A stretch of 34,605 bases of DNA, taken from positions 1 through 34,605 of the forward strand of contig JANMKN010000288.1 in NCBI GenBank assembly GCA_031372065.1. Direction: 5' to 3'. How positions within the stretch are numbered: the first letter of the stretch is position 1; the number at the start of each line of letters is the position of its first letter. A program made the translations under genes and the position numbers. Of this stretch, positions 14,030 to 20,308 are shown in pieces. Source of the stretch: Abditibacteriaceae bacterium (GTDB lineage Bacteria > Armatimonadota > Abditibacteriia > Abditibacteriales > Abditibacteriaceae). The notes under the pieces were generated by a model. That model was given only the letters and a program-made list of their open reading frames with translations, had not been told where the DNA came from and did not search any database.

Positions 14030-16141
14030 ATGGCTGAAGCAACCAAAAAAGCGGCCAGTGGCGCAACACTCAGTAACGCCGCTACCGGTAACTACACCGC
14101 AGAAAATATCACATGGCTCGAAGGCCTCGAAGCGGTGCGCCACCGTCCCGGAATGTATATCGGCGATGTGAACCGCACCGGCCTTTTCGTGCTGTGCCGC
14201 GAAGTGCTGGATAACTCCACCGACGAAGCGATGGGCGGCTTTGCCAACGAAGTGACCGTGCGATTGCTGCCAGACAACGTGGTTTCCATCGCCGATAACG
14301 GGCGCGGCATTCCCGTTGAAACGCATTCCAAAACCGGGCGCAGCGCGCTGGAACTGGTCATGACCGAATTGCACGCCGGTGGCAAATTCGATCAGGGCAA
14401 TTATAAAGTTGCTGCCGGTTTGCACGGCGTTGGCGTTTCGGTTGTCAATGCGCTCTCGGAATGGGTCGAAGTCGAAGTCAAGCGTTACGGCAAATTGCAT
14501 AAGCAGCGATACGAAAAGGGCATCCCTATGGGCGATGTCGAAGTGATTGGCACCGCCGAAGGCACCGGCACGCAAGTGACTTATAAAGCCGATGCCAGTA
14601 TTTTTACGACGGATCAACTTGATCTGGAATTAGTGACCAAGCGCTTACGCGAACTTTCGTATTTGGTGCCCTCGGCGGAATTTAAATTGGAAAATCATCG
14701 CGTTGATCCGATGACTGTCGAACTTTATCAAAATAAAGGCGGCTTGGCGGCGTTTTGTGAGCATTTGAACAAAAACAAAACCGCTTCGCACCGCCATCCG
14801 ATTCATTTTTCGCGCACGACGGACAAACTCGAAGTTGAAATCGCCTTGCAATACAACGAAGGCTATCACGATACCATTGTTTGCTTTGGCAATACCATTC
14901 ACAACATTCATGGTGGCTTGCACGAATCGGGCTTCAAAACTGGCCTGACGCGTGCCATCAAAACCTACGCGAAAAACAAAAAGCTGCTCAAAGATAAAGA
15001 CCCGGAAATTCAAGGCGAGGATGTGCGCGAAGGTTTGGCCGCTGTGATTTCCGTGAAAGTGCCCGACCCAATTTTTTCCAGCCAAGCCAAAGAACGCTTG
15101 ACCGGCCCGCAGTTCGTCGAAGGCGAAGTGAACTCGATTGTTGGGCAGGGCATCGCCGAATTTTTGGATGAAAACCCAAACACTGCCGCACGCATCGTTC
15201 AAAAGTGTGTGACGGCTGCCCAAGCGCGCGAAGCGGCGCGCAAAGCTGCCGATTTAGTCAAGCGCAAAAACGCCCTCGAAAGCGATTCTTTGCCGGGAAA
15301 ACTGGCCGATTGCTCTGAAAAAGACCCGCGCGAATGTGAAATCTACTTGGTCGAGGGCGATAGTGCAGGCGGCTCGGCAAAACAAGGCCGTGACCGGCGT
15401 TTTCAAGCGATTTTGCCGTTGCGCGGCAAGATTATCAACGTCGAAAAGAACCGTTTGGACAAGATTCTTGGCAACGAAGAAATTCGCGCCATGATTACCG
15501 CGTTCGGAACGGGCATCGCCGACCGCGCCGATTACGACGACGTGGCCGCGCAAATCGAAGAAATGGAACAAGGCCATCTCGATTTGGCAACCGACGATGA
15601 CGACGATCCGATTGAACCCGTCAACGGCGCCAATGGCGCACCGGCCAAGCGCAATATGCGCGGCGGCAAAGTCAATGCGGCTTTCGATTTAACGCGCTTG
15701 CGTTATCATCGCATTATCATCATGTGCGACGCTGATGTGGATGGTTCGCATATTCGCATGCTGCTGCTCACCTTTTTCTTCCGTTATATGCGTCCGCTGG
15801 TGGAAAGCGGTCACATTTACATCGCCAAGCCGCCGCTGTATTCGATTCGCAAGGGCAAGCAGTTGCTTTATGCTTACACCGACCGCGAACGTGATGTAAT
15901 TCTCAAGCAAAGCCGGGGCGATGTAGGCCGCTTCAAAGGTTTGGGCGAAATGAACCCCGAAGAATTGTGGTCAACCACGATGGAGCCGGAAAAGCGTGTC
16001 CTCATTCAAGTGACTGTCGAAGACGCCGCCGAAGCCGATCAAATCTTTTCCATCCTGATGGGCGACGCCGTTGAACCGCGCAAAGAATTCATCGAAAAGA
16101 ACGCCAAATTGATAGACGCAGTGGCCGATTTGGATATTTGA
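14030..16141 (+). CDS. gyrB: DNA gyrase subunit B
   Basis: [64 protein letters not shown] and RFKGLGEMN motifs. AAGGAG RBS. Confidence 0.98.
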
Positions 16142-16150
16142 TTTTTAGTG

Positions 16151-17799: not shown

Positions 17800-17809
17800 A
17801 GGAGAATAA

Positions 17810-20308
17810 ATGAGTTTGATTGCCCGTGAAGTCATTCAGATGCGCATTGAAGATGAGATGCGCGTGAGTTATACGCGTTACGCGATGAGCGTGATTGTCG
17901 GGCGCGCGTTGCCCGATGCGCGTGATGGACTCAAGCCCGTTCATCGTCGCATTTTGTATGCGATGTATGACCAGAATATGCTACCCGACCGGCGTCGTGA
18001 AAAGTGCGCCTCGGCTGTCGGCGAAGTGCTGAAAAAATACCACCCGCATGGCGATATGAGCGTGTATGACGCGCTCGTTCGCATGGCGCAGGATTTTTCG
18101 ATGCGCTTTCCGCTCGTGGACGGGCAGGGCAACTTCGGCAGCGTGGATGGCGATTCGGCGGCGGCTTATCGCTACACCGAAGCGCGTCTGGCGTCGCTGG
18201 CGATGGAACTGCTGCGCGACATTGACATGGACACGGTGGATTTTCAGCCCAACTTTTCGGAATCCACCACCGAACCCAGTGTGCTACCGGCGGTTTATCC
18301 CAATATGCTGGTCAACGGTAGTTCGGGCATCGCTGTCGGCATGGCGACCAACATTCCGCCGCACAATTTGGGCGAAGTGTGCGATGCCGTGGCGATTTTG
18401 GTTGAAAACCCGAATGCCACTGTGGAAGATTTGATGGCGGTTTGTCCCGGCCCCGATTTTCCCACAGCGGGCCTGATTTTGGGCACCAAAGGCATCAATT
18501 CGGCTTATCGCACCGGACGCGGCAGCGTAATTATGCAGGCGCGCGCCACTATCGAACCGATTGAAATGGGCCGTCAGGCGATTATCGTGACGGAATTGCC
18601 CTATCAAGTCAACAAGGCCACGCTGATTGAAAATATCGCCGCTATGCACCGCGAAAAGCGTGTCGAGGGCATCAGCGAATTGCGCGACGAAAGCGACCGC
18701 ACCGGAATGCGCATCGTGATTGAACTCAAGCGCGAGTGTAATCCGAATGTGCTGCTGAATTTTCTTTATAAGCACACGGCGCTGCGCACCAGTTTCGGCA
18801 TTATTAATCTGTCCATCGTGGGCGGCCAGCCGAAAGTTTTGTCGCTCAAAGAATCGCTGGAAGTCTTCATCGGCCATCGCCAAGAAGTCATTCGTCGTCG
18901 CAGCAAATTCCAACTCACCAAAGCCGAAGCGCGGGCGCATATTCTTGAAGGCTTACGCGCGATTTTGGCTTCGATTGATGATGTAATCGCTCTTATTCGC
19001 GGCAGCCAATCGCGCGAAGATGCGCGCAACAGGCTGATGAACGAAGGTGTTCCGGCTTATCACGAAGGCAAAAAGGCCGCGAACGGCCAAATGGTGACGC
19101 TTTCGGAAATTCAGGCGAACGCGGTTTTGGATATGCGTTTAGGTCAGCTTACGCAGCTTGACCGCATGAAAATTGATGACGAATTCGCCGAGTTATTGAA
19201 AGAAATCGAGCGATTGCGCGGCATTCTTGAAAGCGAAGCCAAAGTGCGTCAGATCATCAAAAATGACATGGCGCGCATCAAAAAAGATTACAGCGATCCG
19301 CGTCGCACGCAGCTTATTGACCGCGAAGCGCAAGACCTGAAACCCGAAGATTTGATTGCCGAAGAAGATGTTGTTATCACCATCACGCGCGATGGCTACA
19401 TCAAAAAGCTGCCCAAGGACACTTATCGCACGCAAGGGCGCGGTGGCAAAGGCATCATCGGTTTAACCAAAAAAGAAGAAGATTCCGTTGAGCATTTGTT
19501 CGTTTGCACGACGCATCATTTGCTGCTGATTTTCACCAATCTCGGCAAGGTTTATCAAATCAAAGCCTACGAAGTGCCGTCGGCTTCGCGCACTTCGCGC
19601 GGCACGCCGATTGTGAATTTGCTGGGCAATATCGAACGCGGCGAACACGTCACGGCGGCGCTCAACATTGATACGCGCGAAGTCGAAGAAAACAAAGGCA
19701 AGTATTTCTTTATGGTGACGCAAGGCGGCACCGTCAAGAAGACCAAAGTCGAAGAGTTTTTCAAATCGGGCCGCGACAAGATTGCGATTACCTTGGCTGG
19801 AAAAGACGAGTTGCGCTTTGTTTTCATCACCAACGGCAGCAAAGAAGTGATTTTGGCTTCGCGTCAGGGCATGAGCGTGCATTTCAAGGAAGAAGATGTG
19901 CGTTCGGTGGGCCGCAGCGCCTCTGGCGTGACCGGAATGCGCTTCAAGCACAAAAAGGATTACATCGTCGGCGCGGCGGTGGCCGACCCGCAAGATCACG
20001 TTTTGACCGTTTCAGAATTGGGTCTGGGTAAGCGCAGTTTAGTGGAAGATTATCGCTTGCAATCGCGCGGCGGCACCGGCGTTATCACCTTGAAAGTCAC
20101 TGAAAAAACCGGCGAACTCGTCAGTTTGGAATCGGTGGCCGAAGGCGATGAACTGATGATTATCACCAAAAAAGGTGTGATAATCCGACAGGGCATAGAC
20201 AACATCCGCGAAACCGGACGCGTGGCGCAAGGCGTGAAGTTGATACGCCTCGGCGAAGGCGATGAAGTCGCCGCCGTCGCCAAGATTCTGCGCGAAGAAG
20301 ACGAATAA
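17810..20308 (+). CDS. gyrA: DNA gyrase subunit A
   Basis: RALPDARDGLKPVHRR, YHPHGD, GQGNFGS, catalytic AAYRYTE, GyrA-box QGRGGKG and C-terminal pinwheel repeats. GGAG RBS. Confidence 0.98.
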   Translation: MSLIAREVIQMRIEDEMRVSYTRYAMSVIVGRALPDARDGLKPVHRRILYAMYDQNMLPDRRREKCASAVGEVLKKYHPHGDMSVYDALVRMAQDFSMRFPLVDGQGNFGSVDGDSAAAYRYTEARLASLAMELLRDIDMDTVDFQPNFSESTTEPSVLPAVYPNMLVNGSSGIAVGMATNIPPHNLGEVCDAVAILVENPNATVEDLMAVCPGPDFPTAGLILGTKGINSAYRTGRGSVIMQARATIEPIEMGRQAIIVTELPYQVNKATLIENIAAMHREKRVEGISELRDESDRTGMRIVIELKRECNPNVLLNFLYKHTALRTSFGIINLSIVGGQPKVLSLKESLEVFIGHRQEVIRRRSKFQLTKAEARAHILEGLRAILASIDDVIALIRGSQSREDARNRLMNEGVPAYHEGKKAANGQMVTLSEIQANAVLDMRLGQLTQLDRMKIDDEFAELLKEIERLRGILESEAKVRQIIKNDMARIKKDYSDPRRTQLIDREAQDLKPEDLIAEEDVVITITRDGYIKKLPKDTYRTQGRGGKGIIGLTKKEEDSVEHLFVCTTHHLLLIFTNLGKVYQIKAYEVPSASRTSRGTPIVNLLGNIERGEHVTAALNIDTREVEENKGKYFFMVTQGGTVKKTKVEEFFKSGRDKIAITLAGKDELRFVFITNGSKEVILASRQGMSVHFKEEDVRSVGRSASGVTGMRFKHKKDYIVGAAVADPQDHVLTVSELGLGKRSLVEDYRLQSRGGTGVITLKVTEKTGELVSLESVAEGDELMIITKKGVIIRQGIDNIRETGRVAQGVKLIRLGEGDEVAAVAKILREEDE

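Follow-up and report, generated by a model that had tools for sequence, protein, structure and literature searches.

Why do a tcmP gene and a DUF5131 gene, coding for a methyltransferase-fold protein and a protein resembling radical S-adenosylmethionine (SAM) enzymes, lie between the genes of the two DNA gyrase subunits? The arrangement occurs in contig JANMKN010000288.1 of the Abditibacteriaceae bacterium assembly GCA_031372065.1 (Armatimonadota), whose 34,605 nucleotides (positions 1 to 34,605, forward strand) are called the window here. A first-pass annotation of the sequence had regarded the pair as a horizontally acquired module captured in an essential operon, which was either functionally tied to gyrase or used the operon as a safe harbour. 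Our comparison of the locus with its relatives fits the safe harbour. We consider it probable, at roughly 0.6, that the gyrB–gyrA junction is a variable slot and that TcmP–DUF5131 is a predicted defence module, functionally unrelated to gyrase, in which two enzymes modify nucleic acid.

Variable cargo between gyrB and gyrA

The window locus comprises the following features:

14030..16141, + strand: gyrB, DNA gyrase subunit B, 703 aa (NF004189 cut-off exceeded), left flank of the variable slot
16151..17041, + strand: tcmP, 296 aa, class I SAM-dependent methyltransferase fold (TIGR04474; PADLOC PDC-M41A)
17041..17799, + strand: DUF5131, 252 aa, radical-SAM-like, C20-x6-C27-x2-C30 (PF07505; PADLOC PDC-M41B/M30B)
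17800..17809, + strand: 10-nt spacer with the gyrA ribosome-binding site GGAG (17801-17804), read from the sequence
17810..20308, + strand: gyrA, DNA gyrase subunit A, 832 aa (TIGR01063 cut-off exceeded), right flank of the variable slot
13829..13857, + strand: predicted sigma70-type promoter of the gyr operon, TTGCCT-17-TATAAT, 10/12 matches
20323..20355, + strand: predicted intrinsic terminator-like hairpin after gyrA, 14 pairs, from a motif search

The genes are co-oriented and flush-packed in the order gyrB–tcmP–DUF5131–gyrA. TcmP translation starts at the ATG at 16151 or at an alternative GTG at 16148, and the tcmP stop codon is overlapped by the ATG of DUF5131 (TAATG at 17039-17043). Gene order, coordinates, the overlap and the GC counts of the first-pass annotation were all reproduced, the counts (21/60 in line 16201-16260 vs 35/60 at 18061-18120 in gyrA) being exact on recount. 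Its description of the cassette as richer in AT than the gyr genes was also borne out: among 2888 long open reading frames (ORFs) of the genome, tcmP belonged to the lowest 0.6% and DUF5131 to the lowest 7.4% in GC content, whereas gyrB and gyrA ranked at 30-40%. In this assembly, which is 94% complete, the only type II topoisomerase matches were gyrA and gyrB, each in single copy.

The content of the junction was compared by searching the 27 family genomes at the DNA level and fetching their gyr regions. Both ends were on one contig in 23 genomes, and four were left out of the count (G002 without a gyr match; G010, G015 and G019 with gyrB and gyrA on separate contigs). The spacer measured 102-6152 bp and was filled with genes in 16/23 and empty in 7/23 genomes; conflict-type cargo occupied 14 of the 16 filled spacers. 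TcmP–DUF5131 was found in five of them, namely in the window genome (G000), G024, G042, G014 and, in a long form with a GMT-wHTH domain, G018. The same arrangement exists independently in four other genomes, and all TIGR04474 matches of the family (5/27 genomes) are inside the slot. Seven more spacers contained toxin-antitoxin-type modules (PIN, DUF4258 with a YgiT finger, zeta-like kinase, PBECR2, UPF0175, DUF433). The G016 spacer carried a UDG-family and a SEC-C protein, and that of G017 (L049:2702-4901) a type II restriction enzyme (PADLOC E 3e-117) after a methyltransferase broken into several pieces by decay or assembly error. The first cargo gene began -3 to +22 nt from the gyrB stop in 10/16 filled spacers, and no integrase was present among the 59 spacer ORFs scanned. 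Near sisters in the GyrA tree carried different loads: TcmP–DUF5131 in G042 vs PIN in G020, and long TcmP–DUF5131 in G018 vs an empty spacer in G009 vs UDG in G016. In G001, the closest relative of the window genome (GyrA 95% identical), the spacer was empty. In other families of the phylum, 9/12 adjacent gyrB–gyrA pairs had a spacer under about 300 bp and three had a larger one, according to a hand estimate.

Replacement of tcmP in place was observed between G024 and G014, with one genome per species; the two had been chosen before the TcmP tree, a quick tree of 30 rows, was built. Their proteins were 98% (GyrB, over 325 residues), 61% (TcmP), 93% (DUF5131) and 96% (GyrA) identical, and synonymous differences amounted to 0.27 for gyrB, 0.86 for tcmP, 0.35 for DUF5131 and 0.20 for gyrA. 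At the tcmP stop, DNA identity jumped from about 55% to about 90%. G024 and G014 were sisters for GyrA (SH-aLRT 99) and for DUF5131 (93), whereas a clade of the two was rejected for TcmP (p-AU 0.00017). On account of these identities, synonymous differences and trees we regard DUF5131 as a lasting resident beside gyrA in genus g2, where it was co-inherited with gyrA, and tcmP as the gene replaced 5′ of it. The captured module of the first-pass annotation therefore has to be modified. An accessory, AT-rich, mobile pair inside an essential operon is supported; a one-off recent capture is contradicted by the co-inheritance of DUF5131 with gyrA in g2 and by the listing of the pair as PDC-M41.

Other operon junctions of the family each showed a cargo repertoire of their own (13 examples were fetched for rpoB–rpoC, 15 for sucC–sucD and five for atpA–atpG). 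By hand counts from BLAST coordinates, more than 500 extra bases separated rpoB and rpoC in 10/25 linked pairs, and sucC–sucD had room for at least one gene in 18/19. The rpoB–rpoC cargo is a family-specific two-gene cassette in about nine family genomes (L184-L192), which encodes a small protein with an [AV]VIISGP-like motif and a coiled-coil protein; neither had a convincing family in Pfam. Arrays of up to about 5 kb between sucC and sucD (L197-L211) contained a DUF6036 nucleotidyltransferase with a small upstream partner (one Rv0078B-type antitoxin match) as well as YARHG, S4, sugar-isomerase and metabolic genes. HicAB was found between atpA and atpG in G022. This family habitually loads its operon junctions, gyrase being one host among several.

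Two further junctions of the window genome hold an extra gene, of 343 aa between pheS and pheT (C2:7537-8568) and of 124 aa between sucC and sucD (C292:15260-15634). Palindromic intergenic repeats of about 55-95 bp are present in many copies in this genome and its relatives, also at the rpoB–rpoC, atp and suc junctions (L178:1299-1365, L182, L183); the gyr spacer of the window is free of them.

Outside the gyr spacers of the family, 110 tcmP loci were fetched, 82 from metagenomes and GTDB and 28 from other families of the phylum. At least 300 bp of upstream flank were available in 68/82 and at least 1100 bp of downstream flank in 45/82 metagenome/GTDB loci; the GTDB contig scan, made with a single protein query, yielded two loci only. 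A gyrase gene adjoined tcmP in 1/82 metagenome/GTDB, 0/28 phylum and 0/43 viral loci. The sole case, L100, has the order uvrB-like (assigned by eye), tcmP, DUF5131, gyrA-like, from which gyrB is absent. The survey for topoisomerase genes that the first-pass annotation had proposed thus argues against its functional tie to gyrase: one of 110 outside loci is next to a gyrase gene, unrelated cargo occupies the same spacer, and other junctions are loaded as well. An association of the pair specific to gyrase was rejected on these neighbourhood counts and on the cargo at the control junctions.

DUF5131 accompanied tcmP in 74/82 and 29/30 loci. Occurrence of tcmP was patchy (78/401 phylum genomes), and 43 viral contigs encoded homologues; DUF5131 shared the locus in 26 of these. 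Neighbours of tcmP elsewhere were mixed in a Pfam scan of 135/144 ORFs (nine from near-duplicate loci were left out, and nine loci were without a TcmP ORF). Restriction-modification (R-M), toxin-antitoxin, repair, LexA-like and plain metabolic genes were found, and R-M genes adjoined tcmP in several loci. In raw counts for both classes, R-M and toxin-antitoxin neighbours were about as common as repair neighbours.

The promoter upstream of gyrB and the terminator after gyrA, described earlier as the only clear signals, stood out here as well, the promoter-like site at 13829-13857 being one of the two best scores in the motif search of the window. A TTG-17bp-TATAAT/TAAAAT element preceded gyrB in 20/22 family regions read; of the two exceptions, one was cut off and one had an 18-bp spacer. 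Weaker promoter- and terminator-like matches, some of them in or just 5′ of the cassette, did not exceed shuffled sequence (11 vs 7.1+-3.1 and 16 vs 13.9+-4.3). In agreement with the lack of a visible integrase and of terminal inverted repeats or attachment (att) sites noted before, family scans revealed no integrase or transposase in the cassette, and searches found no flanking or terminal repeats at its ends and no tRNA in the window. Insertion sequences, att or tRNA integration and an integrative mobile element were rejected on these grounds. A chimeric assembly, which the first-pass annotation had named as a possible refutation, was also ruled out. Public contigs with 0 differences bridge gyrB and tcmP in 3/4 runs (the three belong to one study, and run X1 is possibly the source sample), one contig extends 31 bases beyond the DUF5131 stop into gyrA, and the four other genomes repeat the arrangement.

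Further genes of the gyr spacers drew attention. A protein of 80-100 aa with the motif 'MWIKSE.G' recurs in five loci and one of 160 aa with 'FFTY.WTGEEF' in three (L038, L048, L049, L052, L058). They had no match in Pfam or NCBIfam, nor in PADLOC for those scanned, and are candidate new conflict genes. In the G014 spacer (L039), a PIN gene lies between two small genes sharing the N-terminus MSKQELMELVAPLS; related starts occur in G004, G020 and G005, and such genes could be internal recombination anchors. GyrB itself varies: in the window (14030-16141) its Toprim region contains an acidic, Gly/Asn-rich insertion of ~50 aa (about residues 500-550). In G016, G014, G009 and G012 (L037, L039, L040, L055) in-frame, intein-like inserts of 170-420 aa follow directly after the Toprim motif EGDSAGG. 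As read by eye, they begin with CF.., and two continue to an HNS end; the three long ones have an HNH-like stretch, and G016 carries a mini form. Elsewhere in the window, at 22602-27647, genes for a PP2C phosphatase, a vWA protein and a zinc-ribbon/FHA-like protein (FHA by eye) are consecutive, forming a Ser/Thr signalling or stress cluster.

The TcmP and DUF5131 proteins

TcmP matched TIGR04474 with 190.7 bits (cut-off 53) and the PADLOC model PDC-M41A over nearly its full length (E 2.6e-113). Close homologues carry the labels Abditibacterium sp. and Armatimonadetes, and no PHROGs family was matched. The structure model (pLDDT 86) has a class I methyltransferase fold with RlmJ as best Foldseek match (E 4e-6; VIA Z 13.9, rmsd 3.9 A over 194 residues); Z values of 12-14 were obtained for many class I enzymes. 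The Z values come from a re-scoring of Foldseek's own matches. The motif I sequence DAFAGTG is conserved, D44-A-F-A-G48 being invariant and E99 present in 118/120 homologues. Amino methyltransferases acting on N6 of adenine or N4 of cytosine have the catalytic motif IV (D/N/S)PP(Y/F), for example D-P-P-Y. The motif following strand 4 of TcmP, L-D152-P153-Y154-(G/S), is related to it but one proline short. Judging by model and motifs, TcmP is a member of the class I SAM-dependent methyltransferase fold, which we did not file under RlmJ or the amino methyltransferases.

DUF5131 matched PF07505 (three-Cys-motif) with 276 bits (cut-off 28.9), PDC-M41B over nearly the full length (E 1.4e-78) and, in PHROGs, phrog_2045, whose function is not annotated. 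C20, C27, C30 and the following Y31 were invariant in 120/120 homologues. Their spacing, CX6CX2C, is a variant of the usual radical SAM motif CX3CX2C. The model (pLDDT 86) was best matched by spore photoproduct lyase (E 7e-4, modest TM of about 0.5), with lipoyl synthase also on top, and shows, at modest scores, the partial TIM-barrel fold of the radical SAM superfamily. By its three-Cys motif and fold, DUF5131 is predicted to belong to this superfamily, to bind a [4Fe-4S] cluster and to cleave SAM reductively. In the PDB, neither the two protein sequences nor their profiles had a match at E below 0.5. DUF5131 paralogues without tcmP occur in the window genome (contigs C185 and C284) and in G003 (C66, L063); one lies in a prophage-like contig with a long insertion, and one in G003 lies beside a divergent HSP90-like ATPase/DNA methylase block. 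At L148, a radical SAM gene of the spore photoproduct lyase family (PF20903) directly follows tcmP in place of DUF5131.

Several known systems can be set beside the locus. The neighbouring genes match the PADLOC models PDC-M41A and PDC-M41B (short TcmP with DUF5131), both strongly, at the level of profile matches. At the same site, G018 has a partner of the type of PDC-M30 (long TcmP with DUF5131). According to the accessible text of Payne et al. (10.1101/2024.01.29.577857), these phage-defence candidates (PDCs) are defined by their location within systems of the BREX, DISARM and type I R-M kinds; the host here is an essential housekeeping operon. RlmJ (23S rRNA m6A2030 methyltransferase; PDB 6qdx, 6qe5) shares the conserved motif I with TcmP at only 12-13% identity, and the substrate of TcmP is predicted only. 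Spore photoproduct lyase (PDB 4fhg, 4k9r) is placed in the same megacluster 5 as DUF5131 in the parts of RadicalSAM.org consulted. DUF5131 differs from it in length (252 vs 340 aa), in the CX6CX2C spacing, in its 11% identity and in having a methyltransferase-fold partner.

The slot itself resembles hotspots of horizontal gene transfer. In the sections available to us, Oliveira et al. 2017 (PMC5635113) described hotspots that are flanked by core genes, lack an integrase and receive new content through homologous recombination. A further article (PMC10250203) reports cDHS1/2, core defence hotspots in Pseudomonas aeruginosa. Like these, the gyr slot is bounded by fixed core genes, contains conflict-type cargo that varies, and has neither an integrase nor att sites. 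In contrast to them, the gyr slot is small (0.1-6 kb) and interrupts an operon, where it separates the genes for two subunits of the same enzyme; moreover, several operon junctions of this one family are loaded in this way. A literature search, in which subscription journals were mostly uncovered, found no description of a gyrB–gyrA slot or of TcmP–DUF5131 chemistry. Relevant mentions of TcmP as a three-Cys-motif partner were table rows only, and none were found of a 'GMT' system.

Explanations for the pair and its location

That the gyrB–gyrA junction is a passenger slot inside an essential operon appears quite probable. Its cargo would be transcribed from the gyrB promoter. As gyrA lies downstream, only promoterless and terminator-free cargo would survive, and insertions blocking gyrA would be purged. 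New loads may be exchanged by homologous recombination via the conserved gyr flanks, as in the integrase-free hotspots of the accessible parts of PMC5635113. The chemistry of the pair and its role in defence are proposed more tentatively. DUF5131 would bind a [4Fe-4S] cluster via C20, C27 and C30, and its 5′-deoxyadenosyl radical would abstract a hydrogen from a nucleobase in the manner of spore photoproduct lyase. TcmP would bind SAM, act on an exocyclic amine as RlmJ does and set target specificity, for which reason it would be the swapped part. The modified nucleobase would then serve in defence against mobile elements. Both closest solved relatives, RlmJ and spore photoproduct lyase, act on nucleic acid, and the pair likely modifies nucleic acid. 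A radical enzyme that stays constant while its SAM-binding partner is replaced would resemble the swapping of specificity parts in R-M systems.

Several points weigh against this interpretation. In two filled spacers out of 16 the cargo is not of the conflict type (anti-oriented signalling genes in G006, a pectate-lyase-like gene in G008), and the G017 spacer additionally encodes TPR and FG-GAP proteins. The match of TcmP to RlmJ is tied with Trm1 and lies only about one Z above unrelated methyltransferases, and D-P-Y-G/S replaces the D-P-P-Y of amino methyltransferases. The PDC listing is based on embedding in known systems, and the available text of the source (10.1101/2024.01.29.577857) gives no phage assay behind the candidate. 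The trees are quick maximum-likelihood trees, those of TcmP and DUF5131 from subsets of the homologues (26/119 listed for TcmP, 29/119 for DUF5131). Synonymous sites approach saturation when the window genome is compared with genus g2 (pS 0.74-0.86 in the cassette, 0.56-0.65 in gyr), so that a recombinational regain is not separable from an old inheritance that G001 and G003 have lost. Co-transcription of the cassette with the gyr genes is what we infer. The ComEC-family gene present in the window genome speaks for the interpretation but is weak evidence, since ComEC is widespread (10/14 control genomes).

With the same slot, the pair could instead serve in repair or tolerance of DNA damage: DUF5131 would reverse or process a base lesion like spore photoproduct lyase, and TcmP would recognise it. 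The six best-ranked Foldseek matches of DUF5131 other than lipoyl synthase are all spore photoproduct lyase (ranks 1-5 and 7), and RadicalSAM.org, in the portion of PMC9477430 accessible to us, places DUF5131 in Megacluster-5-2 beside the lyase in 5-3. The 135 neighbour ORFs include UvrB, RecQ-type, MutS, UvrD, two LexA-like S24 proteins and the lyase-family partner replacing DUF5131, and a second UvrB-like ORF was recognised by eye in L100. However, the patchy occurrence and the replacement of tcmP alleles in place suit an arms race over specificity better than a fixed lesion, and repair neighbours are matched in number by R-M and toxin-antitoxin genes. We therefore consider the repair function unlikely.

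A selfish, addiction-type module, with one product being toxic in the absence of the other's action and with a location at which loss is costly, would agree with the slot mates, mostly toxin-antitoxin-type pairs, and with the translational coupling and frequent joint occurrence of tcmP and DUF5131. Family scans revealed a nuclease or toxin domain in neither protein, though, DUF5131 genes without tcmP exist in G000 and G003, and seven of 23 sites are empty, which makes addiction quite improbable. Even less is to be said for a pair working with gyrase, by modifying or protecting it or by clearing DNA adducts, and kept in the operon for co-regulation. All five family copies are in the slot, DUF5131 tracks GyrA among the g2 genomes, and the pair of L100 lies directly 5′ of a GyrA-like gene. 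Yet 18/23 family genomes, including G001, lack the pair in the slot, and the scarcity of gyrase genes at outside tcmP loci and the cargo at other junctions speak against a partnership, which is thus very improbable. A putative defence module carried as a passenger accommodates these observations best.

Significance for the family

What is new is the site, as the TcmP–DUF5131 pair itself is already listed as the PADLOC candidate PDC-M41. The slot offers a fixed place in which to look for new defence genes. Moreover, natural alleles in which tcmP was replaced beside the same radical-SAM gene provide a direct route to testing the function of a widespread, uncharacterised pair. A more far-reaching reading, rather unlikely as a whole, is that of an integrase-free cassette system in essential operons, with gyrB–gyrA as a defence slot driven by the gyrase promoter and a constant radical-SAM enzyme retargeted by swappable methyltransferase-fold subunits to perform undescribed chemistry. 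If true, G024 and G014, with the same DUF5131 and different TcmP, would represent a swap of specificity already made in nature, and the slots' unannotated cargo would amount to a catalogue of new defence genes. The suggested connection with gyrase biology was not borne out; the two genes likely ride on an essential operon as passengers and do not act as gyrase partners. Throughout one family, toxin and defence genes reside inside essential operons, contrary to the rule, as given in the accessible text of PMC5635113, that transferred genes rarely land within operons.

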